DNA of 63,968 nucleotides, counting the filler, from Reclinomonas americana ATCC 50394 (lineage: Eukaryota), in NCBI GenBank assembly GCA_048213135.1. It is 9 parts of 6 records of this genome, joined end to end, with 100 filler letters (N's around TTAATTAATTAA, not from the genome) between each part and the next. Parts side by side here need not be neighbours in the genome. Positions count along the whole stretch, not along the records: positions 1 to 8,376 come from PS015196.1; positions 8,477 to 33,548 come from PS015196.1; positions 33,649 to 40,991 come from PS015196.1; positions 41,092 to 46,325 come from PS015196.1; positions 46,426 to 54,615 come from PS015197.1; positions 54,716 to 58,569 come from PS015198.1; positions 58,670 to 61,318 come from PS015199.1; positions 61,419 to 62,785 come from PS015202.1; 1 more part is not named here. One strand, written 5' to 3'. Of the stretch, positions 130 through 61,781 are shown piece by piece. The notes beneath the pieces are model-generated. The model had not been told where the DNA came from. It was given only the letters and a program-made list of their open reading frames with translations, and searched no databases. Each line of letters opens with the position of its first letter. Position 1 is the first letter of the stretch. Position numbers and translations under genes: made by a program.

Positions 130-2664
130 GTGGTCGCGGTGGCATGGGCGGAGGCGGTGGCGGAGGCCGCAGCGACTTTTCCGCGACAATCAACGAGCCA
201 CCACCGAGCTTTCCGGTGAGAGAGAGGGGGACAGCACCTGAAACGCTTAGTGTCAGAGTGTCAGTTCGTTTGGGTGGCGTCGTTCTTGTCTATTGTCTCT
301 CAAAATCTGTGAGCTGCACGAACGAAGAGCCTCGCCTCACTGCACGCTTGAAAAGAGAGCGCAACGGACGTGCTTGGACGAGAGAGAGAGAGAGACGCTT
401 GTCGTTTGCTTGTGCGTGTACTTCTTCTTCAAATGCTCAGTGTCAGTCAATTCTCTCCTACTCCTCCTCTTCTTCTTCGTCGTCTTCTTCTTCTTGTCCT
501 TCTTGTTCTTCTTCTTCTTCTTGTTCTTGTTCTTTTTCTTCTTCTTCTTGTTCTCCTCCTCCTTCTCCTCCTCCTTCTTCTTCTTCTTCTTGTTCTTGTT
601 CTTCTTGTTCTTGTTCTTGTTCTTGTTCTTCTTCTTCTTCTTCTTCGTCTCCTCCTCCTTCTCCTCCCGTTCTTCTTCTTCTTCTCCTCCTTCTTCTCCC
701 TCTTCTCCCTCTTCTCCTCCTCCTCCTCCTTCTCCTTCTCCTCCTCCTCCTCCTCCTCCTCCTCCTCCTCCTCCTCCTCCTCCTCCTCCTCCTCCTCCTC
801 CTTTTTTTCTTCTTCGTCTTCTTCGTCCCTTTCACCCGCTTCTCCTTTCCCACCCTCACTCCCTTCCCCTTTCCCAGGAACGCACCCTCATCCGCGCCCC
901 CAACGACGAATCCACGGACGTCGGCCGCCGCCTCGTCGAATTTGCCAACGAGCTGCAGCAAATGTACGTGCGCTGCACCTACAACCCCTCCGAGTTCTCG
1001 CTCCCCGGCCGCAGCTCGCAAAAGCCCCGCGTGCGGCTCATTCGCGGCGTCGGTCTGCTGCCGCCACCCGAGTTGGCGGAGGATTTCGACAAGAACCCGC
1101 GGTTGTTGCCGCCAGAGTTGTTGCCGAGTTGCGTGAGGAAAGGGAAAGGGGGGCGCGGGGGAAGGGAGTAGCGAAGGGATGTGTTTCCTGCGTCGATCAC
1201 ATGTTGATGGACTCGGCGTTCTTCACCGAGTTTTTGGCGCCTGCAAGCGCATCTCTGCTCCTGTGGCAACTCGCCCTCAACACGCTATGCATTCCTTGAC
1301 CCGCTGCATGTGTTTTTCTGGGTTTCCTTGTGTGACAAGCACGCCCTAGTTTCATGAGCCTCTTGTTCCTCACTCTGCTGCTGCGCGCAGCCGCCGAGGC
1401 CTTCGAGTCGGGTCGACGCATCCAGAAGCGAGAAAACTTGAACGAGACGTTTGAGCAGTTGCAGCGGCAAGAAAAGGACATGGAGACTGTTACGTCTGCC
1501 AGGTGCAATTGCCTGATGGCACTGTCTCATGCTGCGATACAACAGAGGAGAATGGAACTCGGGCAGAGCGCGGACGATGAGGAGCAAGTGGCGCCAGAGG
1601 AGGAGATGGACGCGGAGGGCGACGAAATGGAAGGTTTGTCTGCGCACTCTCTCTGTACCGCGTCCTTCTGGTGGCGTCGCGCATTCTCCACACCATCATC
1701 ACTGCCGTTGCCACCATCACTGTCTCTTGCTTCCTCTCACTGCTCTCTTCGCTTCTTATGTGCCACGCGTGCTTTCTCCCTTGTCTCTTGAAGCTCGACG
1801 AGTTTCTGTCTTCTCACTATTCTATCCCTCTCGTCTTTTCACAGCTGTCTTTGTTTCTCTCTCTCATGCTCTCTTTTTCCTTTGCTGTGTGGCCTGTTTT
1901 CTTGTCACGATCGGCGAGCCTCGAACTCCTCCTCTATCCTCGCCTCTCCTTGTGTCTCCTAGTCTCTCCTTCGCTCTCTGTCTCTCTCTCTCGTCGTCTT
2001 TCATTCTCTCTCCTTGTCTTTCCTTGTCTTTCCTGTCTCTCCTAGCCCCTCCTTGTCTCTCCTTGTCTCTCCTTGTCTCCCTTGTCTCTCCTTGTTTCTC
2101 CTTGTCTCTCCTTCGCTCTCCTTTTCTCTCTGTCTCTCTCGTCGTCTTTCCTTCTCTGTCCTTGTCTCTCCTTCGCTCTCCTTTTCTCTCTGTCTCTCTC
2201 TCGTCGTCTTTCCTTCTCTGTCCTTCTCTGTCCTTGTCTCTCCTTGTCTCTCCTTCGCTCTCCTTCTCTCTCTCACTCTCGTCGTATTTCTCTCTCTCTC
2301 TCTCCTTGACTTTCCTTGTCTCTCCTTCTCTCTCCTTCTCATTCCTTTTTCCCTTCTCTCTCCTTCTCACCTGGTCGCTCCTTCTCTCCCCTTGTCCCTC
2401 ATCCCCACTCCCTACCCCTTCCCCCCTTTCCCACTTTCCCCCTTTCCCCCTTCCACCCTTCCCCCCCTCACTCCCTCCCTTTCCCCCTTCTACAGAGGAC
2501 ATTCGTCGCGACCTCAACGAACAAGTCGACGACGACGACGAATACGACGAGGAGGACGACGACGAAGGCGGTGCGTCCCCCTCCCCCCTCCCCCCATTCT
2601 CCACCCCCTTCACCCTCTCTCACTGTCTCTTCCCCCATCAACAGACGAAGGAGGCGTATACTAA
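130..2664 (+). CDS. RNA polymerase III subunit RPC31/RPC7 (POLR3G)-like protein, multi-exon, 5' end outside window
   Basis: Inferred exons 130-215, 878-1127, 1391-1488, 1546-1633, ~2495-2570, ~2645-2664 join in frame: GGRGGMGGG...EPPPSFP|ERTLIRAP...PRLLPPELLP|TAEAFE...LNETFEQLQRQE...very acidic tail ending DEGGVY*. The Gly/Arg-rich start, PPPxFP, LPPELL and acidic tail ending in an aromatic residue fit RPC31/POLR3G from my knowledge of the family; not searched. Confidence 0.6.
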
Positions 2665-2748
2665 CAGTCGAGGCTGAGAACCAAAAAATACACAATCGAA
2701 TGATGTTTGCAAACCACTTTGTACACTCTTTCCATCACTCCCGTTTTC

Positions 2749-3193: not shown

Positions 3194-3231
<38 letters not shown>

Positions 3232-7138: not shown

Positions 7139-8922
7139 ATGGTCCGCCGGAGCAAATCCAAGCGCCTGGAAGACGCCGAAACCAAACACTGCGACTCCCT
7201 CCGCCTCCTCTTCGCCCTCAACTTCTCCACCGCCGCCACCGCCTTTCTCGAGTGCTTTCGCGAATTCGAAGAACTACGCGGCCTCGACAACCCCTGGACC
7301 CTCACCGCCTGGCACTTGTACTTTGCATGCGCCGCGCACGTCGCCAACCTCCGCACGCAGGCGCTATCGGTGCTGCAGGAGCAGACACTGCCGGCGTTTC
7401 GCCGCGTCTACGGTGACGCGCATCCGAGCACCTTGGCGGTGACGGCGACGCTCGGCGGCCTGCTGACGGCGTTGAATCGGGGTGACGAGGCCGCGCGAGT
7501 GCTGCAGGAGGCGCCGTCGTCGTCGGTGGTGGTGAAGGAGTCGTGGGCCGCGGATGCGGAGCAGGCGCTGCTGGCGATGCACAATGTCGCCGCTGGCCTG
7601 GCGGCCTACAAGGCAGCGGCAGTGGTGCCGGCCTCTGCTGAGGTCGGCACACTGCGCGTGCAGCTGCAGCGCGGGCGATTGACGGTCGGCGACGACAATC
7701 AGGCCACGTTGGAGACGGCGCGGAGCTTGGGAGTCGAATTGGTGCGAGTCGGCGGTGCGGAGAATGTCCAGGAGGCGATTACGCTGCTGCGCGACACACA
7801 CGAGCGCTGCAGGCGGGTGCTGCAGGCCAACGACATGGTGGCAATCAATACGGTGGCGAGCTTGGGAATGGCGCTGCAGGCCGCTGATAGGATCGACGAG
7901 GCCATGCCGCTGCTGGTGAACGCGCTGCGCCAGATGCCGCGTGAGGCGCCATTCACTGCAGAGGCGTCGTACTGTGTCGCGCGCATGCTATGCAAGAAGG
8001 GCCGGCGAACCGAAGCCCACACGTACTTGCAGGGACTCCATCAGCGACAGTGGAAGCCGCGCTTCACGCCGGGTTCCGCTGCTCATCTCGAGTACCTGTC
8101 GCTGAGTCACGTGTTGGGCGACGAGCTCAAGAATCACGGCCACCACGGCGACGCCGTGCAGGTATTGGAGCCCGTGCTGGCCGAACGGCGGCAACTGCTC
8201 GGCCACGACCACGCCGACACGCTCGCCACGGCGTTCAGCCTGAGTGTGGCGTTGGGTTTTGCGCGTCGGTTCGACGAGGCCACTGTCGCGCTGCTACGCG
8301 ACACGCTGGAACGCCTGCAGCGGGTGTGTGCGGCCGGCAAGGAGGACGCCAACGTGGTGACAGTCAAGCACGATCTNNNNNNNNNNNNNNNNNNNNNNNN
8401 NNNNNNNNNNNNNNNNNNNNTTAATTAATTAANNNNNNNNNNNNNNNNNNNNNNNNNNNNNNNNNNNNNNNNNNNNACTGACTAGTGCACACCACCTCGC
8501 GGTCCGGTTACTGAGAGCGGGCGGCGCGGCGAGCGAGGCGGTATCGCTGTTGGAGGACACGCTGGCGCGTCGGCGGCAAACACTGGGCGCCGAGCACGAG
8601 GACACGCAGCGGACGGCGGCGGAGTTGGAGAGGGCGCGGGAGGCGGTGGCTGCCGCTGCTGCACGGCGTATGGAACGGAAGCGTTCTGCCTCGCCAGTGG
8701 GTAAGTGATCGTGCTTCCCTTGTCTTGTGATTGTTTGCTGAAGTCTATTCAGGTGATGCGTCGTCGCCACCGCCAGCACAGCGGCAGCGAGTTGCGCCCA
8801 CTCAATTTGTGTATGGCGGTACGTTGAGCGCGGGTGGTGTCATTGATAATCATCGGCAGCCGTCGTCGCCACCCGTTGGTGGCCTGGAGATTCAGCCGTC
8901 GTCGCAGCAGGCGGAGCAGTGA
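7139..8922 (+). CDS. Tetratricopeptide-repeat protein (kinesin-light-chain/TPR_10-TPR_12 type), interrupted by a contig linker
   Basis: Repeated motifs RRVYGDAHPSTL, TVGDDNQATL, RRQLLGHDHADTL, and after the linker RRQTLGAEHEDT. GT-AG intron at ~8701-8752; stop at 8922. The ATG at 7139 follows an acceptor-like tract, so an upstream exon is possible. Confidence 0.8.
8377..8476. other. Artificial contig linker N44-TTAATTAATTAA-N44; others at 33549-33648, 40992-41091, 46326-46425, 54616-54715, 58570-58669, 61319-61418, 62786-62885
   Basis: Identical palindromic all-frame-stop 12-mer embedded in Ns, present eight times. Confidence 0.97.
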
Positions 8923-9099: not shown

Positions 9100-10753
9100 T
9101 CACTTAGCCCTCTCGAGCTCATCAGTGGGATCAACATCCACACACAATACAAACTGCCGCAGTCGTCTGCTCAGCTCCTGCTCTTCTTTCTCCTCCTTCT
9201 CCTCCTCCTCTGCCTTCTTCTTCTTCTTTCCCGACGGCGTCACAGCCGCCGGCCTGTCCATCACCTTGAACACGTGTGCAGGCACCACCCAATAAAACCT
9301 CACCGGCTCATTCTCCTTGCAGCCCAGTGCTCGCAGCATCGCCGCCAGACCGCTCCTGCCACTCTCGGTCACTGCCTTGATGGTGTGGTCTTCGTTGACG
9401 GTCATCTTGCCGACGGTGAAGGCGGCAGATCCGTCGTTGACCGACAGCACAAAATCCACGGCAGCAAAGTTCTTGGCCAACGGCCGCCAGTAGTGGGGTC
9501 CGCCACCGCCCGCAGCCGCCGCCACCACCTGCGCCACATCGTCAAACTCGTGCATCGTGCACCGCGGAATCTCCACCTTCGTCTCCACAACATCACCGCT
9601 GGTGAGCAGCTCACGGCACGCAAACTGGCCTCCGGCAGCCAGCACGCCATGCGCCATCTCCTCAAACACATGACCAAAGAGCACCGAGCCGACAGCACCC
9701 AGCATGCGCAGCCTCGACAGCAGGAACTTCCAATTGGTGTTCTGCCGGGCGGAGACGTGCCAGAGCCGGAACAGCTCCTTCATCACGTAGTGTGACGCAA
9801 AGTCGACGCAGGTGAGCCTAAAGTCATCGCGGTTGACAACGAGGTGCACGAGGCGGTGTGAGATGGTGTCCTCGCGGTCGTTGAGAGTGCCCGCCGCTCG
9901 GATAAGGTCCTCGGGCATGAAGCAGGAAAAGGCGCGCTGCAACGCCAGTTGCGCGCCAGCGCCGACGTTGGCGAGCACCATTCGCGCCGATCCGCCCCAC
10001 TTGAGGTACCGCTGTAGCACTTCCTCGCGGTCCTGACTGGGGAATGCCACTTGTCGCAGCAGCTCGATTTCCTCATACTCATACGTTGGAAAATACAACG
10101 GCACCGCGCCGCGCTTCTCAAAGGTCTTCCAGAGCAGTCGGTTGGGCGACGTGATGAGCAGTGACATGGTCACCTCGTCGGGCCCGTAAAGGCCGGGCGT
10201 CGTGCCGTCCACCAGATACAGGTCGATGTGGTGATCATCTAGAAAGTCCGCCGCGCTCACGGACCGCCACACTCGATCGCCAACGATGAAGTAAGGCTGG
10301 TAATTGTAAACGTCACCATGACAGAGCAAGATCGTCTTCTCCGCCAGCAGGGCGCGGTAGAGCACATACATGCCGAATGCCGACTTGGAGCTGGCATAAG
10401 AGAGAAGAGAACAGAGCAGTGAGGGAGTGAGGAGTACTGCGGACGAACCACGGCACGACGCAAGTCACATCAACTCAACATGCCAGGCGTGCCTGTGATG
10501 AAAAACTTGGACAGGTTTCCACGTGACCGAGCAGGATCCAAGCCACCGAGACCGGCAGATGAGGAGTACAGGCGGTCGTAAAAGTCACGCACGAACAGAA
10601 TGGGTGATGCAGTGCCGGGCCACGTAAAGCCCTTCTCCAATTCGATGTAGGTGGCGTGTGTAATGTCGTTCGTCTTGGTGCGTGTGGAGGTTACCGGGTC
10701 GACGTGCCACAGAGCGGCACGGCGCATGGCAGCGATGCGCTTCTCCATCGCCG
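9100..10753 (-). CDS. Crinkler (CRN)/RHS-type P-loop NTPase + PD-(D/E)XK restriction-endonuclease-fold protein; N-terminus lost in gap
   Basis: Removing intron 10479-10391 gives FFITGTPGISKSAFGMY (Walker A). Further motifs: LYLVDG (Walker B), LITSP, PTYEYEEI, WGGSAR, SHRLVH, FASHYV, GHVFEEMAH, YWRPLAKNFAAVDFV, KMTVNEDHTIK, FYWVVP. This order matches the NTPase+REase architecture of Crinkler/RHS proteins. Confidence 0.8.
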
Positions 10754-11423
10754 CTGCAGGTGGTTGAGGAGCGGAGAGAGTGAAAGTGTGTGTGTGTGTG
10801 TGTGTGTGTGTGNNNNNNNNNNNNNNNNNNNNNNNNNNNNNNNNNNNNNNNNNNNNNNNNNNNNNNNNNNNNNNNNNNNNNNNNNNNNNNNNNNNNNNNN
10901 NNNNNNNNNNNNNNNNNNNNNNNNNNNNNNNNNNNNNNNNNNNNNNNNNNNNNNNNNNNNNNNNNNNNNNNNNNNNNNNNNNNNNNNNNNNNNNNNNNNN
11001 NNNNNNNNNNNNNNNNNNNNNNNNNNNNNNNNNNNNNNNNNNNNNNNNNNNNNNNNNNNNNNNNNNNNNNNNNNNNNNNNNNNNNNNNNNNNNNNNNNNN
11101 NNNNNNNNNNNNNNNNNNNNNNNNNNNNNNNNNNNNNNNNNNNNNNNNNNNNNNNNNNNNNNNNNNNNNNNNNNNNNNNNNNNNNNNNNNNNNNNNNNNN
11201 NNNNNNNNNNNNNNNNNNNNNNNNNNNNNNNNNNNNNNNNNNNNNNNNNNNNNNNNNNNNNNNNNNNNNNNNNNNNNNNNNNNNNNNNNNNNNNNNNNNN
11301 NNNNNNNNNNNNNNNNNNNNNNNNNNNNNNNNNNNNNNNNNNNNNNNNNNNNNNNNNNNNNNNNNNNNNNNNNNNNNNNNNNNNNNNNNNNNNNNNNNNN
11401 NNNNNNNNNNNNNNNNNNNNNNN

Positions 11424-12486: not shown

Positions 12487-13260
12487 AAACGATGACAGAA
12501 AGACAACTAGCCGTCCCGGCGGACAACACCGACGTGNNNNNNNNNNNNNNNNNNNNNNNNNNNNNNNNNNNNNNNNNNNNNNNNNNNNNNNNNNNNNNNN
12601 NNNNNNNNNNNNNNNNNNNNNNNNNNNNNNNNNNNNNNNNNNNNNNNNNNNNNNNNNNNNNNNNNNNNNNNNNNNNNNNNNNNNNNNNNNNNNNNNNNNN
12701 NNNNNNNNNNNNNNNNNNNNNNNNNNNNNNNNNNNNNNNNNNNNNNNNNNNNNNNNNNNNNNNNNNNNNNNNNNNNNNNNNNNNNNNNNNNNNNNNNNNN
12801 NNNNNNNNNNNNNNNNNNNNNNNNNNNNNNNNNNNNNNNNNNNNNNNNNNNNNNNNNNNNNNNNNNNNNNNNNNNNNNNNNNNNNNNNNNNNNNNNNNNN
12901 NNNNNNNNNNNNNNNNNNNNNNNNNNNNNNNNNNNNNNNNNNNNNNNNNNNNNNNNNNNNNNNNNNNNNNNNNNNNNNNNNNNNNNNNNNNNNNNNNNNN
13001 NNNNNNNNNNNNNNNNNNNNNNNNNNNNNNNNNNNNNNNNNAGAAGGGGCGAAGGGAGGACAGGGAATAGTGGCAGTGTGTCAGTTGACTGTCAGGTTTG
13101 GCTTCATGCTGGCAGACAGATGCTTGCAAAATGCAGGCTCAAATGACTCTCTCTGTCTCTTTCTCACTCTCTTTCTCTCTCTCTCTATCACACACACACG
13201 CGGACGGAGTTTCCCTCGACTCAGGAAAGCAAGCAGACACGAAGCTGACAACGGCAACAT

Positions 13261-16200
13261 TCAAGTGCAACAGGCACACCGACATAAATCAAGAAAGCTT
13301 GCGCATGCTACAATTTCACGCAACTCGTCAGAGTCGGTGCCTGAGCCGCCCGCAAAGTCCTCATCGTCGGACTCGGTGGCCGCCTCATCCTCCTCCTCTT
13401 CGTCGTCGTCCTCGCCAGCGAGTGCGTCCAGCTCCTTTTGGCGCTCGAGTTCCTGCAATGGAGGGGAAGGAGAAGGGCAAGAGAGGTGAGTGCAAAGGAG
13501 AACGGTGAAAGGGAGAAATCGGAACGGACACACATAAAGAACTACTGGGAGGCAGAGAATGGTGGATGGGAAAGGAAAAAAGAAAGGAGACAGAGGAAAA
13601 GGAAAAAGAAAAGAAAGAGGAAAGATACAGGAGGAAGGCAGAAAATGATGAACAGGCAAGAAAATCAGTGGAACTGGAAGGAGAAAGAAAACATGGGAGT
13701 GGACAGAGAAGCAAACAAGCAGAAAGAGAATGGCAAAGCAACGTGAATCAACGGAGAAAGGAGAAGGAGGCTATTCCAAGAGAAGAGAGACCATGTACGA
13801 AAGGGGCAAGGAAATGCAGATAAACAAGAAATCGAGACGCAAAGAGAAAGGAGACAAGGAAACAGGGGTAGGAAGGCAAGAAAAGAATGGACAAGAAACG
13901 ACATGGAAGCGAATGGAGACAAGGAAACAGAGGAGTGAGCGAAAGCAAGGGAAACTGAAGGGCAAGAGAGAAAAGGAACGGAAACGGGATGGCAAGTGGA
14001 CGAGAAAAGGAGATATAAGGAGACTGGAGACGAAAAAGGGAATGGTGACAAGGAAACGAAGAGTGAGCGAAAGCAAGGGAAACTGAACGGCAAAATACAA
14101 GGAAACGTAAAGAGAAAGGGAGGGAACGGCGAACGGACAAGAAACTGGAAAGAGAAGGAGACAAGGATCTTTAACTTCTCGCTGACTCTTCTCGCTGCTC
14201 TCTTTCCTTCTCGCTGCCCTCTTCCTTTCACTGCTCTCTTCTCTCACTGCTGCTCTCTTCTCGAAAGAATGAGACAGGCGAAAAAAGGGCGAACGCGCGA
14301 GCAACCAGCTGCAGAAAGCCAATGCGATACAACGAAAAAACAAGGAGAGACGACTTGTATACAATTAAAGGAAAGAAATAGAGAATAGAAAAGAAGCATG
14401 CAAAACAGAAGGGACGAGTCTCTTCTCTTTCCCTCTTTGCCTCTCTTTCCCTCCGCCCTTTCCCCATTCCCACCCTTTCCCCTTTTCCGACTCACCGACT
14501 TGGCCCTCTGCATCTGAATATTCTTCTCCTTCAGATAGTTGGCCAGCGGCTCGTACTCATCCTTCGCCACATTGTTGAAGAGGTACGACTCGCCCGTGGT
14601 GGTGGTGACGCTAAACTCGAAATGCTTGCCCGAGCCGGCACCCTCCGTGCGCTTGAACTTGACGGCGCTAATGGCCTCGTGGCGAATAATCAACACCGGC
14701 TTGTGCAGGAAGACCACGTTGCGCTCCAGCGGGAAGAAGGAGCCCTCGTCGGCCTTGTACGAGCAGCGGATGCACGAGTGGCCGTCGGCGCTGTGCACAA
14801 TGTGAGGTCCAAGGTGGGAGTGAGGGCAAGGGCACTTGAGTGAAAGCGTACCTCTTGAAGTGACCCGGGCCAAGAATCTTCTTCTTGGTGAACGCACGCA
14901 GCGTCTGGCCGAGGATTTCGTAGAAACGGCCGCTGATCGTGTGCGACAGACCCATTTCCTTGAGCTTTTCTCTGCAAGAGGGGTGAGTACAGGAGATGAG
15001 AGAGTCTGTCTTCAGTCGCGCACACAAACGCAACTCGGGCAGGTGGATGACCAGTGGATCACTCTCGTCAACCACTTCCTCCTTGTCGAGGTTGAACACC
15101 AGGTTCGGGTACATGGTTTGGCCGAGACGCACGGCGGGGTCCAGCGAGACCTGTGTGGCAAATGGGGAGAGGGGGAGGGAGAGGGGGAAGGGAAGGGAAT
15201 GAGGGGAAAGGGAATGGGGGAAGGGAATGGGAAGGGAATGGGAAGGGAAGGGAATGGGGGAAGGGAAAGAGGACGCGAGAGATGAAAATGGTAGTGAAAA
15301 GCAGAAGGAGAATAGAAAGAAAGCGGTGGAAATGCGGGCAGACAGTGCACACGATACGAGGGACAACAAACGTGGGGGTAAGCAGAAAGGGCTCAGAGGG
15401 AGCATGAGAATGACCAGCGACTAACAGATCGCATTCAATGCACAACTGCGAGAAAGCGCTGCAAAGTATACAAATAACGCAGACTTGCAGATCACTGACT
15501 TACAGAGAACAAACACATGAGTTGACTCACGAACGCTCAACGACAAAAGCGAGAGAAATACAGAGAAGATGCAGCGTGAATCAGGCTAACATCTGAGGAG
15601 GGACAATCGAGAGTCAACACACAACTGCAATGGTGAGAGAAGCACAGGAGTATGAGAGGGGTCAGACAGACAACACAGGAGAGAGAGAGAGAGAGAGAGT
15701 CATCCACGAGGCGAAAGAATGATCTCCGACAACCCCTCCACAAAGTCGATAAACCACTTCTCCTCATCAACGAACCACCAAGAACGTGTGCACATCGTCG
15801 GCCTTGGGCAGCATGAGCATCTTGGAGATGTAGCTGTACGGAATGCGGGTGTTGTACGTCGGACCGTGCAGCTTCATGACACCCTCGAACAGCTCAATGT
15901 CGTAGCGGCCTCTGCAAGACAACAATGAGTCGCGCGATGATGAATATTGCATGGTGAGTGCACCAACCTTGGCACCAGCATGGACAACTTCTGGAAGACG
16001 GCGGCCGCATCACCAGCACTGGTGACGTCGGTCATGGCGAGAATGCGCTTGACCAGTTGCTCGTGGCCTGCATGCCCGAATACAATGAGACTGATGGTAA
16101 GAGAGACAGTGGGAAGAATAGAGAGGGAAGAGAGAGGGAAATAGCGCGAGTGGAAGACAGAAACAATGAGAGAGAGAGAGAGCGAGAGAAAACAACGCGA

Positions 16201-17295
16201 AAAACAAACAGAACTGCTACAACTTCGACCACAATTGCACCTCTACTCTCGTATCTGCCATATCACCATCCCAACACACTGTAAGCCCTCCCAACAAGCT
16301 TATTATCCAGAACCCAAAACACATCACCTCCAAACAAACACAAACAAAAAGACACACCCTTCCCTCACATTCCACATCTTCGCATTTCCCCCTTTCCACA
16401 CTCTTCCCCTCAACCTCTCCTTTCCTTCCATATCCCCACCTGCCGCGGCCGCCGACCGCACCACCTCCCCATCCTCGTTCTCCTCCTCCTCCTCCGCCGC
16501 CCCATCAGCCGCCGCCGTCCCATCCGAGCCCAACGCCGGCACGTGCAGACGCACCTCGACCAGACCCTCGGCCATCTGCTCATCAATTACACACAGTCAA
16601 TCTCTGCGCCCTTCTTCTCGCACCCTTCCCCCTGCTTTCCGCAACATCCTGATCCCCCGAAAAATCCATCAGCACCTCGTTCTTGCCCTGCGCCACGCAC
16701 TGCGTAATGTCGGCCAGGTGCACCTCCAGCGTCGGCTTGTCGTCGACCATAAAGACGAGATTCTTGCCCTCGAACTCCACATTGCCCCAGTTCTTCCCCG
16801 ACGTGCCCAGCGTGCGCTTCTCCATGTTCTCCTTCACCTTCTTCGCGCGCAGATACGACTTGATCGTCTCAAAGTCGTCCTCGCGCAGGTTGAGAAAGTT
16901 GAGCTGCATGTCGGCGCCCATGCGCAGACGCAGGCGACAGTTGCGCGAGAGACGCGTCCACTCGGCGTCGGTCACCTCGCTGACGGGCAGCGACTTTTTC
17001 TCGCGGTCCTCCTCGGCGGTGTTGCCTTGCGAGCTGGTCCATTCGATTTTGTTGTTGCCGAGGCGGAGGGTGCCGACGCTCTGACAAGGGAAAGGGATTG
17101 TAAGGGAAAGGGATGAGGACAAGGGAAAGGGATGAGGAAAAGGGAAAGGGATGAGGAAAAGGGAAAGGGATGAGGAAAGGAGAAGGGATGAGGAAAGGGG
17201 AAGAGAAAGAGATGAGGAGAGAAAGAGATGAGGAGAGAAAGAGAGAGCACATTCGGTGTAATCAGCGGCGGCAGTGTGACGACGGTGGGTTCATT
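13261..17295 (-). CDS. SSRP1: FACT complex subunit SSRP1/POB3
   Basis: Exons encode SGKNWGNVEFEG, GKNEVLMDF, LVEVRLHVP, RGRYDIELF...KLHGPTY, VSLDPAVRLGQTMYP, IRCSYKADEGSFFPLERNVVFLHKP, YLFNNVAKDEY and an acidic tail ESDDEDF. Start and final exon boundaries are approximate. Confidence 0.95.
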
Positions 17296-27374: not shown

Positions 27375-30300
27375 TTACACGTCCTCGTCATCGTCCTCGT
27401 CCTCCTCCTCTTCCTCTTCCTCTTCTTCCTCCTCCTCCTCCTCCTCGTCCTCATCCTCCTTCTCCTCCTCTTTCTTCATCACCTCCATCTTCACTGGTTT
27501 CTCGTCACCCAGCACTGCATCTTTCAAGTCAGTGATGAGGGTGGCACGACATGCAACAACAGCAGGTGCATTAAGATTGTTGCCGTTGGAGCACTCACCA
27601 ATACGCCCAATCTCCGCCTTCGAAAGACAACCGTCTCGAAGCAGAGTGGCCAGCATGCCTGGGTAGTTGTGGAGCAGATACATGGCCTGTGTGACGAACG
27701 GCAGAAGAACATTTGGATGGTTGTTCTTCGGCAACTTCGCCGATTCCTGCCACCCGAGAAGACGCATAGTGAACAAGCTATCATCGATTCACAGAACCAC
27801 ACAACCAGAAGACATGCCTCACAGTAGCCGCAATCGTCAATCACAATCAGTGGTCTCTCGATAGCATCCACCAGCGCAGCTCCTCGAAGACCACTCTTCT
27901 GATGATCCCGCATATATTGAACTCAAGTCAGTCACCAGAACGTCACGATCGGAGGCGACACCGAAACAGCACAACGACACTCACCTCAATGTAGTTGCTA
28001 ACGCTCGCCAGCACGCCCTCAACTGACTTGGTCGTCCTGCTGCGTGCCATGCCGGCACTACAGGCAAGACTCTTGCCAAATGCGGACATGACAGCGGACG
28101 ACGGACAGCCCGGTCCCTCCGACGGCAGTCCGCAGTCGTCACAGGCAAGCAGGAAGAGAAGGCGCTGATGATGGAGGACTGTGGATCCCATCACAGAGAG
28201 CGCCATGAGGCCGAATGCCTTCACCAGTATCTTCTTCCTGTTGCATGCCTGTTCGCATGTTTGTTGGGTGAGTGGAAGAGAGTGAGGAGTTCACGATAGC
28301 ATCAACGGTGACATGCAAGGAGATAACAACAACACGCAACATGCAGTTTCGTCAGCATCAGTTGCTCGTTGATGCTCAGCCTCGCAGGATCAACCTTACG
28401 GCGCTGCAAAACACAAGCCATGCAGTGTTGAGACATACCTTATGCATTTCACTTAAGAGAGCGTCGGGCGTACCTTCTTTCCCTTCCCATCATCGTCCTC
28501 ATTCTCACTTGCGTCAGCATGCTCCCCATCCTCCCCCTTCACCTCTTTCTTCAGAATCTCCATCTCCCCGAGAGCTGCTCGCATGCCTTCGTCAGCACGC
28601 GCACAAAGTACAGCAACAAATCATCACGCAGCCAAACCTCGGTCGCTGCACCACTCACCGGCACGCTCAATCTCCCCCTTCGAAAGGCAACCGTCTCGAA
28701 GCAGAGTGGCCAGCAGGCCAGGACAATTGCTGAGAGCTTGCATGGCCTGTGTAACGAACGGCAGAAGGCCATTTCGAGAACCTCGCTTCGACAACTTTGC
28801 TGATTTCTGTCACCCGAGAAACGCGAACGTGAGACAACATCTGCGGCGCACAACCAGCGTCCACATGCCTCAGATTGACCACAATTGTCAATTGCAACCA
28901 GCGGTCTCTCGACAGCTTTCACCAATGCAGCTCCTCGAAGATCGCTCTTCTGATGATTGTCCACACGGGTCAGCCAGCAGGTAAGCCACCATCGATGTGA
29001 AACTGGAGCAACAAACGAACACTCACCTCGATGTAGTTGCTCAGGCCCTCGAGCACGCCCTCAACTGACTTTGACGTAGTGCTGCGTGCCGTGTCGGCAC
29101 TTTTGGAAAGACTCTTGCCGAATGCAGCCATGACAGCAGATGAGAGGCAGCCCGGTCCCTCTGACGGTAATCCGCATTCGTCACAGGCAAGCTGGAAGAG
29201 AAGGCGCTGATAATGGAGGACTGTGGATCTCAGCACCACGGGTGCCATGAGGCCGAATGCCTTCACCAGTATCCTCTTCCTGTTGCATCCCTGTTCGTAA
29301 GTGTAATGAGTGACTGGGAGCGAGGGATTCACGATAGCATGGTCGGTGAGGTGCAGAGATAACAACAATACGCAACAAACAGTTTCGTCAATATCAGTTG
29401 GTCGTTGACGCTCAGCTTCGCAGGACCACTGTTGCGGCGCTGCAAACGCACACAATGAATTGTTTAGATACGCACCTGTTGCATGCCACACATCGCAGCG
29501 ACGAATGTACCTTGTCCTTCCCATTTCCCTTCGCGTCGTCATCTTCACTCTCGCTGTCGTCATCATCCCGCTGCTCTTCTTCCCTCTTCTCCTCTTTCTT
29601 CCCCATCTCCATCTCTCTCAGAGCTGGGCCAGATTGTCAATACGTGCAAAAACAGTGCAGCAATGACGAATGTCACGCAGCCAAACCTCGTTCACTGCAC
29701 CACTCGGTAACACGTGCAATCTCCGCCTCAGACAAACAGCCGTCTCGAAGCAGAGTGGCCAGCAGACCTGGGCAGTTGCGCACGGCATCGACGGCCTGTG
29801 TGAACAACGGCAAAAGAGCATTCTGCTTGCTGCGCTTCTTCCACGGCAAGAGTGACAACTCCTGACATCCGAATTCCGGAAACAGAATGTGAGAATCGCT
29901 ATCTTCACGCAGAACACAGGGCAACCGTACCTCCGAATAGCCACGTTCGTCCACCACAACCAGTGGCCTCTCAATGTCATCCGCCAGAGCAGCGCCACGG
30001 AGTTCACTCTTCTGCACAATGACGCATTTCTTAGCGCCGATCGTTGATGTGACGGGTGAGACGGGCAACACTCACCTCGACAAAGTTGCTCAACATCTGG
30101 AGCACTCCTCCAACAGACTTGGGCGTCTTGTTGCGTATGTAATTAGCGTACTGGCCAAGGCTCTCGCTGAATGAGCTCACCACTGCCGGCGAAAGACACC
30201 TTGCTTTCGATGCAGAGACACCACCGCATTCCTTTAAAGCGAGTTCAACAAGAACGCGCTGATGATGGCGGACAGTGGGACCCATAACCATCGGCGCCAT

Positions 30301-33300: not shown

Positions 33301-33548
33301 CTCATCCTGGGATGACACACATCGACTGTACCTCGACGATGCCATCCATCGCTGTGTGTTCCATGTGCTCCTGGTCAGCAGCTGTGGGTATGCACCGCCC
33401 AGGTGAGACATCACGTGACACGAGAGCACCAAAGACAGCAAGAAAAGAGAGAGAGAGAGAGAGACGCACCCTGCTCAGTGCGATTCTCCGCGTCACTTCT
33501 CGCAGAGGCAATGGCGGCTGTGCTCTCGTCGGTGTGCTTCTTCTTCTT
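27375..33548 (-). CDS. Large protein built of five tandem copies of an unrecognised multi-exon module separated by acidic linkers
   Basis: Five homologous 1.0-1.2 kb units (~33057-31925, 31829-30660, 30499-29511, 29439-28474, 28403-27375). Each encodes CNRKxILVKAFGxMA...HHQR...AC..CG...AFGKSL...KSVEGVL...YIE / LRGAALV..IERPL.V..E.GY.E / LLPFVTQA...CPGL...LLRD..L...EI...WC and shares intron positions. The junctions I traced (units 3-4, 4-5) splice in frame. 5' end is cut by a linker; last exon uncertain. Confidence 0.75.
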
Positions 33549-33723
33549 NNNNNNNNNNNNNNNNNNNNNNNNNNNNNNNNNNNNNNNNNNNNTTAATTAA
33601 TTAANNNNNNNNNNNNNNNNNNNNNNNNNNNNNNNNNNNNNNNNNNNNCGGGGAAGGGAAAGGGGGGGCGGGAAGGGAAGAGAAAGGGGGAAGGGAGGGG
33701 AAAGTTGGGATGAGAAATAAGGA

Positions 33724-34475: not shown

Positions 34476-34527
34476 GAAGAGAGAAGAGAACTGAAACGAG
34501 AGGTCCGCTATCGTAGACAAACGCAAC

Positions 34528-52178: not shown

Positions 52179-54366
52179 AACAGCAGAGAGAGGGAGAAAG
52201 ACAGAGAGAGAAAGAGAGAGACGAGAGAGAGAAGAGGAGAGTAAGGAAGCACGAGACGAGAGAAAGCGAGGAGAGAAATATGAGAAGGGAGACACGGTAA
52301 ATAAAGAGAGGGAGATAGCAATGGATGATAATAGAAAAGAGGAGTCAATATGAGTGAAAGGAGACAAACCGCAATATAGAGGGGAGAGTAGGGGGGAGAG
52401 AAATGTCAGCCACTGCGTGGAGGAGAAAATAGGGGAGTAGACGAACGTACCCATCGGTGAGCAAGCGACGCGGACCGTCGCGTGCCTCCAGCGGCTCGCT
52501 CTGCAAATCACGCAGCGCCGACCGACACGGAGTGACGCCGGAGAATCGGTTGCCGAGGATCGTTGCTTGCACAATGTCCACGCGGGCGAACTGCGGAGGA
52601 GGGGGGACGGTGAGTGAGAGAGAGAGAGAGAGAATATTGACGGAGAAGGACGTGGCGTGCGACGGGAAACGATGCTAATAAACTACAACGGAGGCAATGA
52701 TGAAAGGAAAGGAGAAGAAGAGTAAGGCGAGAAGCATTCCGTCACGCTCCCTTCCCTCCACTCGAATGACAAGAGGAGAAAAGAGAGGAAAGGAAGGTGA
52801 ATTGTCTCTTCGCACTCCATTCCAGCTCACAATCCCTTCTCCTCCGGGAGGAATGAAGAGAGAGGTGTAGAGAGCGCTTGAATGGAGGACAAGTGAATAT
52901 GAAGACACAGTTGAGCTCACTGGAGCCAACAAGAGAAGAATGGATAGCAGATATCTGCCCTTCACCCTCCTCTCCCCTCACCTCCGCAGGACCAAGCAGC
53001 GGGAGAAATGAAGAGAGAGGTGTAGAGAGCGCATGAAAGGAGTAAGAAGTGAAAAAAGAAGATACGGCAGATCTCACAAGAGGCGAGAAGAGAAGAACAG
53101 ATTTCTGGAATAAACTATCATTCTCCCTTCACACCTCATTCCAGATATCAATCCCTTCCCCTCCACTCTCCCTGCCCCTTCACTCATTCACTCCTAATTT
53201 CCCTTTCCCTTCTCTCCCATTCCCTTTTCCCTTTCCATTCCCTCCACATCTCTAAACTCTCTTTCTCTCACTCTCCGTCCCCGTTCCCCTTCATTTTCTT
53301 TCTCTTCCCCTCAATTCCCCTTTCCCTCCTCCTTCCCCTTCATCCCCTTTCCCTTCCCCTTTCGCTCACCGGCACCAAGAACAACGGAAAGTTGACCTCC
53401 CCCGCATCATCCACAATCAAGCGATACCGCTGTACGTCAAACTCCAGCGACCGACTGCACAACGCCGGCAGCGACACGAAGTACACCTTGGCCGCATCAA
53501 AGAACGCCACCGACGATGACTGCGCGATAATCAGTGAGCCTCTTCCCACCGCAAAGCATACTCTTTCCTCATCAACGCGCAACTTGCTGATCGGCATTCT
53601 TCCGAATCTGATACATGAAATCACCGTACAGCTCGCGGAACTCCTCGACGTCGTCCTTGGGAATGTCGGGTCCCAACAGGCGCACCATCGGCACCGCGTC
53701 ACCCATCTCCTCCGTCACGTTGTTCTCGTAAAAAGTGCAGGCCAGTGCGTCCACGGCGGCGTCGTTCGGCGCACACACAATGATCTTGTCGTCGGGGTAG
53801 CGGCGACGGTAAAAGTCCAGCAGCGCCTCCACCACGCGCGTCTTGCCGGTGCCCGCCTCGCCCGACACAATGGAAATGTTGCGGTTCACGGCCAGCTGCA
53901 GGCCGCGCGATTGGTCCTCGTCGAGGCCGTGTGCGCGCTGCACGTCTATCAAACTGCGAGGTGGGGGGAGAAGGGGGGGCGAAGGGAAAGGGCGGAGGAG
54001 GCGAAGGGAAGGGGGAGGGGAAGGGAAAGGGGGAGGGGAAGGGAAAGGGGGAGGGAAGAGGGAGGACGGAGACAAATGAAGAAGAAATGAGGGAAGGATG
54101 GGAAGGAAACGGAAGCGAAAAATGAGAGAAAAGGGGAAGAAATGTAAGCAGCAAATCGAAAACATCAATTGCTGCCAGGGTAAAACACTCAACATTTGTT
54201 CGTGAATCGCACGCTCGCCGGGGGCGTGTTGAAGATCGATCACTTTGCCGTCGATGATGTTCATCATGACGTCCGAGGTGTCGGAGCGCATCAGGAAGCG
54301 GAGAGAGGCGTCCATCTCGAGCACGGTGCGCATGCTGTAGACGTCGTCCTTGACACCTTGGCGGGC
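50149..54366 (-). CDS. Superfamily-1 helicase of the Upf1/Dna2/Nam7 type with degenerate motifs; 5' end missing
   Basis: LDEDQ (Q motif), IVSGEAGTGKT (I), IIVCAPNDAAVDAL (Ia), LIVDDAGE (II), LSRQYRFSPPL, HVDDFQSSEAPVVIV (V), RVSVASTRASELFVVVGN (VI). Confidence 0.85.
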
Positions 54367-54411
54367 CTGTCGAGAGGTGTGAGAAGGGGGGTGAGACATG
54401 GTGGGAAAGGG

Positions 54412-54615
54412 GGAGGGTAAAGGGGAAGGGTAAAGGGGAAGGGTAAAGGGGAAGGGTAAAGGGGAAGGGTAAAGGGGAGTGCAAGGGGGAGTGCAAGGGG
54501 GAGTGCAAGGGGGAGTGCAAGGGGGAGTGCAAGGGGGAATGCAAGGGGGAATGCAAGGGGGAATGCAAGGGGGAAGATAAGGGGGAGTGATAAGGGGGAG
54601 TGATAAGGGGGAGTG
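54412..54615. repeat. G-rich 12-13 bp tandem repeats (gggtaaaggggaa; gcaaggggggagt; gataaggggggagt) in a helicase intron
   Basis: Directly visible tandem units up to the contig end. Confidence 0.85.
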
Positions 54616-54861: not shown

Positions 54862-57800
54862 GGTGTTGCCAGTTGTCCTCATGGCGCTCCGCAATCTGTG
54901 TGACATGGACGATGTCGATGACGCCGATCACGTGAGGGAACATCTGCCGGCATACGTGGGCGAGCTGGTGCGCAACCTGGCCGAGCTGGGCGGCCGCAAT
55001 CTGCCGAGCAACCTGGTGCAGCCGTTTGGCGTTCTCCTCGCCATGCTGGTTCGCACCGCCCCGGCGTGCATGGCCACAGTTGAGTGCAGCTCTCTCTCTC
55101 TCTCTCTCACACTCTCTCTTTCTCTGGTTTAACTCACCGACGGTGGAGTAGGAGTACGACAATCTCTTGCCGTTACTGCGATCCATGCTTTCGCAGTCGG
55201 AAAGCGACGACGGGAAGCTGTCGGATTTGGCGGCGCAGGCTATCGAGTGCTATGCACATCTGAGTGCGTCACTCATGACCAGTCCATTGCCGTGTCTGTG
55301 CCTCATTGTCATTATTCCAATTTGCTGCGCAGTGACGGCGCGTGGTGTCGACGAATGCCGCGAGGACGCACAGCCATTCCTCGACCGTCTGCTGCAAGCA
55401 CGTGCGTTGTTTGGTTGTTGTCATCGCGATCCGCGCGCATATTCGACTCATTTTTTCTTCCCGAGCTGCAGGTCTGGTCATTTACGAAGAGTCGCCAAAA
55501 AATGCTCAGACGCGAGCGTGGGTACACTTGCTACAAGAGTCGCCGCAGGTGGTTTCGGCGCATGTCGGTGCACTGATGTCCTCCGTCAGCGAAATATTGC
55601 ACACCATGCCCGACCTAAAAATATCCACAGTCGATGCTGATGGTTTGTTGCGCGCGACTGGTGATCCTCCTTTTGTACCTGACTCGAACCGGGCTGTGAT
55701 CCAGAGGGAGAGGCTGAAGCTGGCGAAGGGGAGGGCCAAATTATCATGATTATGGAAGGCCGCAAGATGGTTGGTGTTTCTGTTGTGTTGTGTTTTGTTG
55801 TTGTTCTCACACACGTGCATGTAGTCATTTTCAATTGACGTGAATCAAGTCCACATCCTGAAACACGGTGCGTCGCAGCCTCCTCCTCCTCCTCCTTCGT
55901 CTTCTTCTTGTTCTCTCCCTTCCTCAATTTCTGTTGCCTCCCGACGCAGCCATCGGGTTTGTTCACGACGTGGCCAACTTCTCGCCGGCGGTTATCGCAC
56001 CGCTGGCGATGCTGTTGATGCCCGCGCTGCAGCCGCTGCTGGAGTACAGGTTCCTCCCAGAGGTTCGCACAGAGGCGTGCGACGCTGCCACTAAAGTGTG
56101 CCTGGCCGGCAAGTTGGCAGGTTGGTTGTTGTCATTGCTGCACATTTCCTGCTGTTCGCCTAATAGCTGGCGTGCCGTGCAGGCGTCGACATGACACACG
56201 ATCTGGCGGTGATGATTGCATTTCGACTGAACGCAGACATGTCGGGTACGAAGCTTCATGTTCATGATCATGATTGTGTGTGCGTGTACTCATTATTGGG
56301 CCTTCCGATTGCCACCCTCTTCACGCAGCGAGTGAGATTCAGACGAATCTGAGCAACCTCGGCTCGCTTGTGGAGTCGTGGCCGGAGGATGCACCTGGCT
56401 TCTACGACAAGGTCCGCCCACTGTATGACGTGGCGTACGCCGCCATTTGCGAGCGAGCCGTAGAAAAGCGTGCACCACTCATTGGTAGGTGGAACAAGTG
56501 CGGGGTGCAATATGCCAATCTCACCTGCGTTTGTAACCGCAGAAAGTGTGAGTGGTGGAGCGGACGGCGACGGCGAGGTCGACGACGTGAGTGGTGCGAC
56601 GGCACTGGAAGAAGACGAGCTGACACTGCAGTTGGTAAGCATGATTTCCTTTCGCGAGTGCATGCTTGTTCAGTTTGCTCACCCGTGGCGGCACGCAGTT
56701 TGCCGACTTTATGGAAGTCATTCTGCGCAAGTGCTCCGAGTTCCGCATTGCTTTCACCGCGAACATGTTCCCTGTGATATATCGACTCGCTGTTGCGTGG
56801 TCATCTTGCTGCGCCGTGTGTCTCTCTTTGCTGAAGAGAGTGGTTGGCACATGCAGAGTAATCCAGCGGACTCTGGAATGATTAATGTGGCCGCCATGAT
56901 TGTTGACGATGTGCTGGAGTTGGGTCGCGAGTCAGTCCCACGTGAGGTGGTTCTGGCTGCCATGCAGTTCTTTGTCGAGCACGTGACGTCAGAGTCCTCG
57001 CGCGTGCGCCAGTCGTGCTCGTGGGGTCTGGGTCTGATTCCCGCAACCAATGCCGCGGGTTGGAAGGAGGCCGCTCCAGGTGCAGTGCAATGCTCCTCGT
57101 GCGCATGTGAGTTGTCTTCTTCTGACCAACTGGCACAGCGGTTCTCGGAATGTTGGCCAGAATGGCACTGAAGCCGCAGGCCGCAGCCAGAGATGCACCA
57201 CGCCCCGTCGACGACGACGACGACGAGGACGGAGATGCCGCCATGGAGGACGAGGACGAGGAGGGTGAAGAGGAACTGGTCGGTGAAGCTGCGCGCGCAG
57301 CGGAGGGTGCGCGGATCAATGTGATATCGGCCATTTTCAAGGTTGGTTGGATAGAGGCGTTTGTCGTTCCACGTTTTCCCGCTCACTGCGAACTCGGCGC
57401 CGCAGATTGCATCGGCACTGGAGCCTGGACCGGTGCAAGACGATGCATTCCGTGTATTTGTCAACGGCTTGCCGGTGGATAAGGGCGACGACACTGAGAA
57501 ACCGATACTGTACGCCTCTTTGGCGAGTTTGCTGGAGCGGTGAGCGCAGCATGCATTCATCTTCTGCATAATTGTCGCCAACCACCCCTTTCTCCCGCCC
57601 CCGCACCAGTGATCACTGCAGCGTGGTGCAACTGGCTATGTTCCCGCGCATCATGACCCTCGTGGCCACCATCCTCCAAGACGACGACGTGGACGCGCCG
57701 ACCCGAGACCGCGTGCGTGCCGGTGTCAGTCTCCTCTTTGTGCGACACTTCCACGAGGACGGATACGCCGACGCCTTTGCCGAACTGGACGAGTCGGTGC

Positions 57801-58730: not shown

Positions 58731-58817
<87 letters not shown>

Positions 58818-59142
58818 ATTCACTCCCTCCCTCCCTCCCTCCCTCCCTCCCTCCCTCCCTCCCTCCCTTCACCCACTCACTCACTCGCTCACCGACTGGC
58901 TGACTCACTGCTGACTCACTGACTGACCTTCCCCCTTCGCAGACTCACGCACGCACATATTCTCAAACTTCAATCGAGAAGAAAAAGAGGAAGCAGAAAG
59001 GAATGACAGGGAGAGGAGCTACCTTCTCACATGCAGACCTTCCTTTCTCTCCCTCCGGGCTTCCCCTTTCTCCTTTCCCTTTTTCTCCCTCTTTCTCTCC
59101 TCCTCCCTTCCCCTTTTCCCCTGCTCCCTCTCCCTTCACGCA

Positions 59143-61318: not shown

Positions 61319-61418
61319 NNNNNNNNNNNNNNNNNNNNNNNNNNNNNNNNNNNNNNNNNNNNTTAATTAATTAANNNNNNNNNNNNNNNNNNNNNNNNNN
61401 NNNNNNNNNNNNNNNNNN

Positions 61419-61781
61419 CTAATGTCCTTCTTCAGAGTGCCACTGTGCACGCAGGGAAAAAGAACGTGAATATAACAGCAAGCATGCAGGAATGCATTCC
61501 TGATTACTCAACGACACAGTGACCGTCACGTTCTGGTGCTGGCGCGGCGGGTCGGGGTTGATGTCGAGGGTGGAGATCTCGAAATCGTATGTGCTTGGGT
61601 CGGGCGAGGTGCACACGGTGAAGTCGTTGGAGCCAACGACCAGGTTGGCCATCATAAACATCGCCATCATGGCGCCTGCGGGGTGACGAAAATCAGTGTG
61701 AGTGCAGGATCAGTGCGCGTGCGACACACACACACACACTGGCCATGACTCACCGAGGATAATGAACAGCGAGCGAGTCAT
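61419..61781 (-). CDS. ML (MD-2-related lipid recognition; NPC2/PG-PI transfer protein) domain protein with signal peptide; 3' end cut by linker
   Basis: MTRSLFIIL|GAMMAMFMMANLVVGS (hydrophobic leader), FTVC...FEISTLDINPDPPRQHQNVTVTVS|GTLKKDI. Confidence 0.8.

Follow-up and report, generated by a model that had tools for sequence, protein, structure and literature searches.

The 5′ terminus of the U1 small nuclear RNA (snRNA), and then the ACAGAGA region of U6 snRNA, pair with positions +1 to +6 of the intron. The position of this pairing is treated as nearly fixed across eukaryotes, and shifted or bulged registers are known only as rare exceptions, shown site by site in human cells. The present analysis concerns the window, a stretch of 63,968 nucleotides (nt), filler included, that joins nine parts of six records of the Reclinomonas americana ATCC 50394 genome (assembly GCA_048213135.1), and a set of putative 5′ splice sites (donors) within it that read GTTG(A/C)G(T) and carry one T more than the GTG(A/C)GT donors of the same window. 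Shifted and +2/+3 bulged registers have been experimentally proven in human cells (Roca et al., 2012, as cited in Tan et al., 2016; Tan et al., 2016, PMC4856993). For 201,541 human 5′ splice sites, that article gives 68 predicted and 54 curated +2/+3 bulged sites, together with 51 predicted and 36 curated +3 sites, and places the validated noncanonical registers together at 1.5% (PMC4856993). Like the human +2/+3 bulged sites, the donors described here have an intron-initial GU, an extra U and a consensus block located one base further in, and in the canonical register they are without a +5G. They differ from the human sites, which are a tiny minority with an AAGU block, in that the block is G(A/C)GU and would be used at 10 of 27 intron positions in loci picked for the motif, as deduced from DNA.

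The obtained results suggest that the U2-type 5′ splice sites of this organism include a second, genuine class, GTTG(A/C)G(T), and that a shifted or bulged-U pairing reads its G(A/C)GT block one base deeper in the intron; we give this interpretation slightly better than an even chance. The heptamer GTTG(A/C)GT is a real, non-random and strand-specific signal and not a product of chance. It sits at predicted exon ends that are verified by the reading frame, and it is conserved between paralogues. The initial annotation had proposed such a donor class and attributed it to a bulged register or a variant U1/U6 snRNA. The class itself and an intron start at the first G were upheld by frame, motif and paralogue evidence, while the snRNA part of the proposal found no U1 or U6 gene in the window to which it could be tied.

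Sequence inspection agreed with the initial annotation on the presence and strand of the motif at all 18 sites that it listed. Fifteen of these read GTTG(A/C)GT, and the remaining three were GTTGCGG (16645), GTTGCGC (53583) and GTTACGT (1489). On both strands of the window, GTTG(A/C)GT occurred 30 times against 13.2 expected under a third-order Markov model (GTTGCGT, 20 against 8.5; GTTGAGT, 10 against 4.7), an excess with a pooled Poisson P of 5e-5, or 1.2e-3 when four paralogous copies were left out. Among the 24 single-base insertions into GTG(A/C)GT, a T after +2 ranked first, with ratios of 2.36 and 2.14. Comparably high values were reached only by GTG(A/C)GTT, which hold the canonical hexamer, and insertion of A, C or G after +2 remained at or under expectation. 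GTTACGT had been regarded as the same extension of a GTA-type donor, a claim that gained no support, as the window contains a single GTTACGT and no GTTAAGT.

The orientation of the motif was assessed in 14 gene spans with fixed orientation (29.8 kb). GTTG(A/C)GT displayed a sense to antisense ratio of 18:3 (P = 0.006 relative to GT dinucleotides as a whole, 58% of which are sense), and of 13:2 (P = 0.015) when the paralogue array described below was removed. The control GTTG(A/C)G(A/C/G), which differs at the last base, gave 16:22 (Fisher P = 0.002 against 18:3), and GTTGGT gave 11:3. A branch-like CT(C/G)A(C/T) followed by YAG was located 40–140 nt downstream of 14 of the 30 GTTG(A/C)GT matches, compared with 1271 among the 6714 GT dinucleotides overall (an odds ratio of 3.75 with P = 5e-4); with the paralogues dropped, the count was 10 of 26 (P = 0.016). 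Raw GTG(A/C)GT matches scored 37 of 152 in the same test. At the level of hexamers, where power was low, GTTGCG preceded such a context in 20 of 55 cases (P = 0.012) and GTGAGT in 25 of 84 (P = 0.07). A local intron score also favoured the class (4 of 28 against 2.9%, odds ratio 5.7, P = 0.008), although its poor sensitivity makes this weak support.

Many of the 152 raw GTG(A/C)GT matches belong to microsatellites or are simply the reverse complement of ACTCAC branch-like motifs that lie in introns on the other strand. Examples of the latter are the GTGAGT at 14983 (+), 15954 (+), 48541 (−) and 48644 (−), and other GTGAGT matches fall in (GTGA)n, (GTGC)n and (GT)n arrays. Raw canonical counts thus greatly overstate the real donors.

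The location of each intron start was evaluated from the coding sequence on both sides. For SSRP1, a profile was built from full-length homologues among the 150 matches listed, and every in-frame, stop-free GT/GC-AG junction was scored against it; for the other genes, exon cores considered secure were taken as anchors, and each GT-AG solution between them that kept the frame and was free of stops was enumerated. An intron start at the first G appears to be fixed, and is well supported, at six independent positions comprising ten sites (1128, 10479, 16645, the five copies in the paralogous units, 48598 and 53583), and the junctions originally claimed there are backed by frame, motif or paralogue evidence. 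The corresponding introns are as follows.

1128–1390, plus strand: intron of 263 nt, donor GTTGCGT in phase 1, acceptor CAG at 1388–1390; placed by in-frame enumeration
10391–10479, minus strand: intron of 89 nt, donor GTTGAGT in phase 2, in the RHS/Crinkler-like P-loop gene; placed by Walker A spacing
16576–16645, minus strand: intron of 70 nt (or 67), donor GTTGCGG in phase 0, in SSRP1; placed by the homologue hidden Markov model (HMM), 161.1 bits
28249–28340, minus strand: third intron (intron C) of unit 1, donor GTTGCGT, 92 nt; placed by phase 0/0 and paralogue conservation
29291–29376, minus strand: third intron (intron C) of unit 2, donor GTTGCGT, 86 nt; placed by paralogue conservation
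30343–30433, minus strand: third intron (intron C) of unit 3, donor GTTGAGT, 91 nt; placed by paralogue conservation
31547–31639, minus strand: third intron (intron C) of unit 4, donor GTTGCGT, 93 nt; placed by paralogue conservation
32744–32836, minus strand: third intron (intron C) of unit 5, donor GTTGCGT, 93 nt; placed by paralogue conservation
48598–48658, plus strand: intron of 61 nt, donor GTTGCGT in phase 1, in the LRAT-like gene; placed by the Pfam LRAT match and a Tyr codon
53520–53583, minus strand: intron of 64 nt, donor GTTGCGC in phase 0, in the AAA_11 helicase gene; the sole solution with a CAG acceptor

At the 1128 locus, 13 in-frame GT-AG solutions were obtained, and the pyrimidine-preceded CAG at 1390 pairs only with the donor at 1128; the alternative reading frame of the exon downstream contains a stop. 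A normal-looking GTGAGG 5 nt past 1128 had been dismissed for giving the wrong phase. This GTGAGG is in frame only with a GAG acceptor further downstream than the CAG at 1390 (exon start 1399). Three in-frame solutions exist at 10479, one of which deletes the P-loop and another of which reads through the intron; only the GTTGAGT donor yields ...FFITGTPG-I-SKS... with Walker A spacing, and the downstream exon carries YLVDG, a Walker-B-like strand. The donor at 16645 is the sole GT that keeps frame, with three possible acceptors. At 48598, the junction joins T and AC into a Tyr codon directly before NLLHRNCEH, and the exon after the intron matches positions 101–118 of the 120 in Pfam LRAT (E = 4e-4); an in-frame rival, GTGTTTG at 48592, 6 nt upstream, would turn Gly-Val-Tyr into Asp. 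At 53583, no other phase-0 GT fits the CAG acceptor, which is accompanied by a branch-like CTCAC, and an in-frame stop lies 9 nt past the donor. At the robust sites, the GT at +6/+7 of the heptamer is out of frame.

The region 27378–33540 (minus strand) holds five tandem units of 1.05–1.2 kb each (27.8–33.5 kb) and a partial sixth at about 27.4–27.9 kb, and five intron positions are common to the five units. At the third position, the exons end in a variable codon (CAT, TTT, CAT, CTT and CTT) followed by GTTG(C/A)GT, and the next exon opens past CAG with a variable codon and then a conserved Cys-Asn, both sides being in phase 0. The donor heptamer of this intron showed a mean pairwise identity of 0.94 with 6 of 7 columns invariant. 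Identity was 0.68 in the last 30 exon bases before it (11 of 30 invariant), 0.56 in intron positions +8 to +37 (5 of 23 invariant) and 0.42 in the remainder of the intron (1 of 34 invariant). The only variable column of the heptamer is +5 (C or A), which mirrors the main class, where +4 is A or C. The fourth introns of the same five units have GTGAG donors, in which positions +1 to +5 do not vary and positions +6 and +7 do. The constrained positions at the third intron therefore lie one base further in than at the fourth, which is the outcome expected if the G(A/C)GT block has moved by one base.

The conserved exon of the array reads ...CN(R/K)K(K/R)ILVKAFG(L/I)MAP... with several Cys, and each unit may be a gene of its own or a module within a single gene. 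The units matched no Pfam family, and a search for paralogues elsewhere in the window turned up only the array itself. The other donors of the units read GTTTGG, GTTTGA, GTCTGC or GTACAG; GTACGC, GTACAT or GTTCGA; and, at the fifth intron position, GCATGT, GTACGG, GTGTGC or GTGAGT. At this last position, units 1 and 2 have GAG|GCATGT (about 27790–27812 and 28841–28863, minus strand) and units 3–5 have GTACGG, GTGTGC and GTGAGT, an apparent GT-to-GC donor turnover between recent paralogues.

In the proposed mechanism, cleavage would take place before the first G, with the GU itself still used in catalysis. The G(A/C)GU block, which the common GUG(A/C)GU donors have at +3 to +6, would lie at +4 to +7 owing to the extra U. 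First U1, with its 5′ end, and afterwards U6, with its ACAGAGA region, would pair with the block one base deeper in the intron, with either one U (+2 or +3) bulged out or the whole helix moved by one base. Each of the 17 GTTG sites has A or C at +5 and G at +6, a poor match to the canonical register. Shifted or bulged pairing of U1, and probably of U6, is the most likely mechanism; the normal register would give mismatches to U6 at +5 and +6. The observations that bear on a possible dependence on +6G and +7U are indirect: both are invariant in the five paralogues, and the strand bias changes from 16:22 to 18:3 with +7T.

The exon side of the junction was also compared. G at −1 was found at 0 of 6 robust positions and 0 of 13 independent claimed positions, as against 5 of 5 GTGAG donors (Fisher P = 0.002); these five donors, either verified or placed by parsing, are 14495, the fourth intron of the units, 61753, 53369 and 57540. 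If this contrast is real, the absence of −1G fits a helix shifted by one base, with +1G replacing −1G, although the numbers are small. It fits a simple bulge less well because −1G should still help in that case. In other respects, the introns of the class resemble the others, with lengths of 61–93 nt and CTCAC- or CTGAC-like motifs ahead of CAG.

Several results weigh against the shifted or bulged reading. The five paralogous sites among the 17 GTTG sites amount to one event, and the evidence for the junctions consists throughout of frame, motifs or paralogue conservation in DNA. Many other donors combine +3T with a good fit to the normal register (GTTGGT, GTTCGT and GTTTG(G/T)). U at +3 alone marks no shift, since it is common among the verified donors, and a tolerance of U at this position may be general here; +3T is not specific to a shifted block, and the coupling test proposed in the initial annotation would need refining. 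The class is distinguished by A or C at +5 combined with G at +6. The −1 base of the 30 sites is not different from background composition (G in 2 of 30, P = 0.31). No gene for U1, U6 or any other snRNA was detected in the window by Rfam at the gathering threshold or at E ≤ 1, with only sub-threshold low-complexity matches. When the two heptamers were paired with the widely conserved U1 5′ end in a nearest-neighbour calculation, their duplexes reached only −4.6 and −1.4 kcal/mol, with +1/+2 unpaired. The heptamers were no better than controls with A, C or G inserted (−3.7 to −4.0 kcal/mol), and the calculation with this generic U1 end did not discriminate. An exon ending in GTT followed by an intron starting with G(A/C)GT is frame-neutral everywhere and is directly excluded only at 10479. 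Finally, six of the claimed sites (15034, 54193, 55079, 56792, 61512 and 1489) are plausible and in frame, yet face other GT donors that are equally in frame, and two more (13324 and 34527) are followed by no confirmed exon before the N runs (at 13041 and at 33549–33648), as the initial annotation had already remarked. These eight sites are as follows.

14972–15034, minus strand: candidate intron of 63 nt in SSRP1, donor GTTGCGT; a multiple of 3 and stop-free
53954–54193, minus strand: candidate intron of 240 nt in the helicase gene, donor GTTGAGT; 8 in-frame solutions
55079–55151, plus strand: candidate intron of 73 nt in a HEAT-repeat gene, donor GTTGAGT; rival donor GTTCGC at 55049
61443–61512, minus strand: candidate intron of 70 nt, donor GTTGAGT; 2 in-frame solutions
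56792–56798, plus strand: claimed donor GTTGCGT, ambiguous; 13 in-frame solutions with 7 different donors
1489–1495, plus strand: claimed donor GTTACGT, ambiguous; 13 in-frame solutions
13318–13324, minus strand: GTTGCGT ending an acidic SSRP1 exon; the exon, 13428–13327, matches the HMM weakly
34521–34527, minus strand: GTTGCGT after an exon ending ...VINAGV...RRVVK; placed by translation, the piece being without a Pfam match

At 15034, a rival GTGTGC at 15025, 9 nt further on, scored 58.3 bits against 59.8, and at 61512, a rival GTCGTT at 61515, 3 nt upstream, would change the product by one residue. The candidate introns at 14972–15034 and 53954–54193 are multiples of three without an in-frame stop, so their retention would preserve the frame; the second, of 240 nt, is a CT-rich minisatellite. 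Further GTTG(A/C)GT matches beyond those of the initial annotation are possible donors at 17883 (−), 51534 (−), 63932 (+) and 4901 (−). A long open frame lies upstream of each, a pyrimidine-rich acceptor candidate lies downstream of three of the four, and 51534 is on the sense strand of the helicase gene.

The same donors could be accounted for in other ways. If the consensus at +3 to +5 were simply relaxed, GTTG(A/C)GT would be a frequent weak donor in the ordinary register, with +6G and +7U kept through U6, through proteins or by chance. The great diversity of the verified donors (including GTACTA, GTGGGG and GCATGT), the similar sense bias of GTTGGT and the duplex energies with a standard U1 end, which favour no bulged helix, all speak for this, but it leaves unexplained why enrichment is confined to a T after +2, why +7T switches the strand bias, and why +6/+7 are fixed and +5 varies in the paralogues when the reverse holds for their GTGAG donors. 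We consider such relaxation unlikely. A dedicated variant U1, perhaps with a variant U6, could instead pair with GUUG(A/C)GU free of any bulge through one extra base at its 5′ end, so that two snRNAs would serve two donor classes. Animals have variant U1 genes with altered 5′ ends, and both the sharp definition of the class (only T, only after +2, with seven strongly conserved positions in the paralogues) and its lack of the −1G of the main class are what a separate recognition specificity would produce. A variant U1 alone would nevertheless be insufficient, since U6 and the catalytic core must accept the extra base too, and the Rfam search found no snRNA gene of any kind in the window; we regard this possibility as improbable.

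Misassigned junctions are comparably improbable in our estimation. The true intron starts would then lie at a neighbouring GT, at the GT of +6/+7, or 3 nt downstream, in which case GTT would be exonic and the introns would be of the GC-AG or GA-AG kind; the heptamer itself would be some other sort of element, exonic or intronic. The six sites with in-frame rivals lend themselves to this explanation, as do the nearly equal scores at 16645 (160.5 bits for the exonic-GTT reading against 161.1) and the true GC donors, GAG|GCATGT, of units 1 and 2. Against it, a 3-nt shift at 10479 adds a residue (G-TPGMF-SKS) and breaks the GxxxxGK(S/T)-type spacing, no alternative GT fits the best acceptor at 16645, 53583 or 1128, and a shifted start would demand GA (GAGT) and GC donors at one paralogous position, together with an invariant exonic GTT that has no role. 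An exon ending in GTT with an intron starting in G(A/C)GT is thus unlikely. The last alternative, a spurious T added to true GTG(A/C)GT donors in the draft, draws on the gapped nature of the assembly and on the fact that an extra intronic T disturbs no reading frame; it would have to recur at about 17 donors, including all five diverged paralogues, always as a single T and never as another base, and we find it scarcely credible. A second donor class read in a shifted or bulged register remains the interpretation that we favour.

The verified donors outside the class were examined in the same genes. In SSRP1, GTTGGT at 15967 was the best donor by 9.3 bits and joins ...VPR to GRYD..., the best-conserved stretch of the protein, and GTTCGT at 15775 was the best by 9.4 bits. 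Additional verified donors are GTACGC (14851), GTGAGT (14495 and 61753), GTGAGC (53369), GTATGC (48498) and GTACTA in the Arf gene. With the exception of this GTACTA, the verified donors listed outside the class keep +5G (GTGAG, GTGCG, GTACG, GTATG, GTTGG, GTTCG and GTTTG). GTTGGT also occurs at 56121 (+) and 56631 (+), where it is placed as a donor by a rough parse only; the one at 15967 (−) is homology-verified.

The share of introns that use the class was approached through eight fully read loci with 27 intron positions, which include the following donor types.

GTTG(A/C)G donors: 10 positions (6 robust, 4 plausible or untestable)
GTG(A/C)G donors: 4 positions
GTTNG donors with +5G: 6 positions
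GTA-type donors: 4 positions

The fraction of the class in these loci is biased upward because the loci were flagged for containing the motif, and the large share of introns that the initial annotation assigned to the class likewise rests on genes selected for such sites. In unflagged genes, a rough gene finder and the context list suggested that GTG(A/C)GT donors predominate. Setting the roughly 17 excess GTTG(A/C)GT matches against a few dozen plausible GTG(A/C)GT donors, we estimate that the class accounts for roughly a tenth to a third of introns. We put forward as a tentative possibility, which we hold to be less likely than not, that one-base shifted or bulged reading, confined in humans to hundredths of a percent of sites, is constitutive here and defines a major class, with a 7-nt GUUG(A/C)GU signal and no −1G, in perhaps a tenth to a third of introns.

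Gene content was established by a Pfam search with all 283 open reading frames of the window of at least 100 amino acids. The main genes identified in this way are as follows.

About 13.3–17.3 kb, minus strand: SSRP1/Pob3
44.5–45.2 kb, minus strand: Arf GTPase
About 53.4–54.4 kb, minus strand: AAA_11 helicase

Further genes of the window identified by Pfam are TPR, ankyrin and SERRATE/Ars2. Among the names given to host genes in the initial annotation, SSRP1, LRAT and helicase (AAA_11) are supported by Pfam. The name importin gained no support beyond a weak HEAT match, and the exon pieces named RPC31, SDR and ML domain matched no Pfam family at E ≤ 1. In the protein collections searched, no close relative was found for the SSRP1 or Arf queries: the best SSRP1 representative had 39% identity over the domain, a 185-amino-acid fragment reached 56% over 68 residues, and the Arf exon had many homologue matches with a top identity of 69%, none of them a self match. 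An extended homologue search with the SSRP1 exon gave no match.

The P-loop gene at 9100–10760 (minus strand) is an orphan. Its intron-split Walker A motif reads GTPGISKS, with Ser in the usual place of Gly. No Pfam family was found for it, and its exon had no match in the sequence search or in PDB; its closest look-alike clusters include RHSP (retrotransposon hot spot) and Crinkler-type proteins, a lead only.

The window contains 29 N runs with 5681 N in total, and short introns are plentiful. Some gaps, such as 8377–8476, 33549–33648 and 61319–61418, consist of 44 N, TTAATTAATTAA and 44 N, an artificially inserted linker with stops in all frames; the remaining gaps are plain N runs of 300–600. 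Pyrimidine-rich minisatellites (with units such as CTGTTCCTTCCCC and CCCCCTTGCAYT) lie in or beside introns and adjoin N runs, for example at 49100–49303 (+) and 54400–54615 (−).

Two approaches to gene prediction were set aside. A self-trained codon model drifted to GC3-rich frames on both strands. A donor-agnostic gene finder based on dynamic programming (GT/GC...AG only) was rejected as an unbiased census, as its intron model favours T-rich starts. It recovered its training introns, misplaced many others (14491 instead of the GTGAGT at 14495) and missed most introns of the paralogous units. Its top donor hexamer was GTTGCG (6 of 121), a result that was not counted as evidence.

If transcripts confirm these junctions, this organism would make routine use of a mode of splice-site reading that humans employ very rarely. 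Such a system would show how splice-site codes diversify and would provide a natural setting in which to see how a helix can move without taking the cleavage site away from the GU. It would also help to identify the components that set this tolerance, namely the U1 5′ end, U1C, the U6 ACAGAGA box, Prp8 and the 27K protein. Were the class a major one, either the U1 and U6 snRNAs or the proteins that position the 5′ splice site would have to have co-adapted, or there would have to be a second U1 that carries an extra base. In practical terms, gene finders trained on 6-nt donors would misplace these exon ends and generate frameshifted proteins in this genome.

Beyond the bulged human sites, the class can be compared with four known systems. 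It is like the shifted (+1) register, in which the pairs are reported to move by one position and +1G to replace −1G (Roca and Krainer, 2009); this register would account for the consistent lack of G at −1 in the class. The test oligonucleotide for the shifted register, as given in PMC4856993, has C at +3 followed by AAGUAU, and +3 is U here. The GTG(A/C)GT donors of the window share with the class the G(A/C)GT block, the A/C alternation, short introns, CTCAC/CTGAC-like motifs and CAG acceptors, and they differ in being one base shorter, in having −1G (5 of 5 against 0 of 6) and in that +6/+7 are not conserved between the paralogues. GC-AG introns offer another likeness, as introns after an exonic GTT would begin with GCGT or GAGT and units 1 and 2 do contain GC donors; the difference is that GA donors would be needed, the Walker A spacing would be broken at 10479 and the invariant GTT would be unexplained. 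With U12-type introns, the class shares the presence of a second, sharply defined donor class in one genome. An assignment to the U12 type was rejected, as none of the listed sites has the (A/G)TATCCTT donor and the 3′ regions show CTCAC/CTGAC-like motifs as in other introns, in contrast to the TCCTTAAC-like branch site of U12 introns. In the open-access literature, a limited and not organism-specific search found no organism with such a donor class, and the heptamers matched only primers. The kind of pairing proposed here is already known; what would be new is its apparent frequency, its definition over seven nucleotides and its signature at −1.

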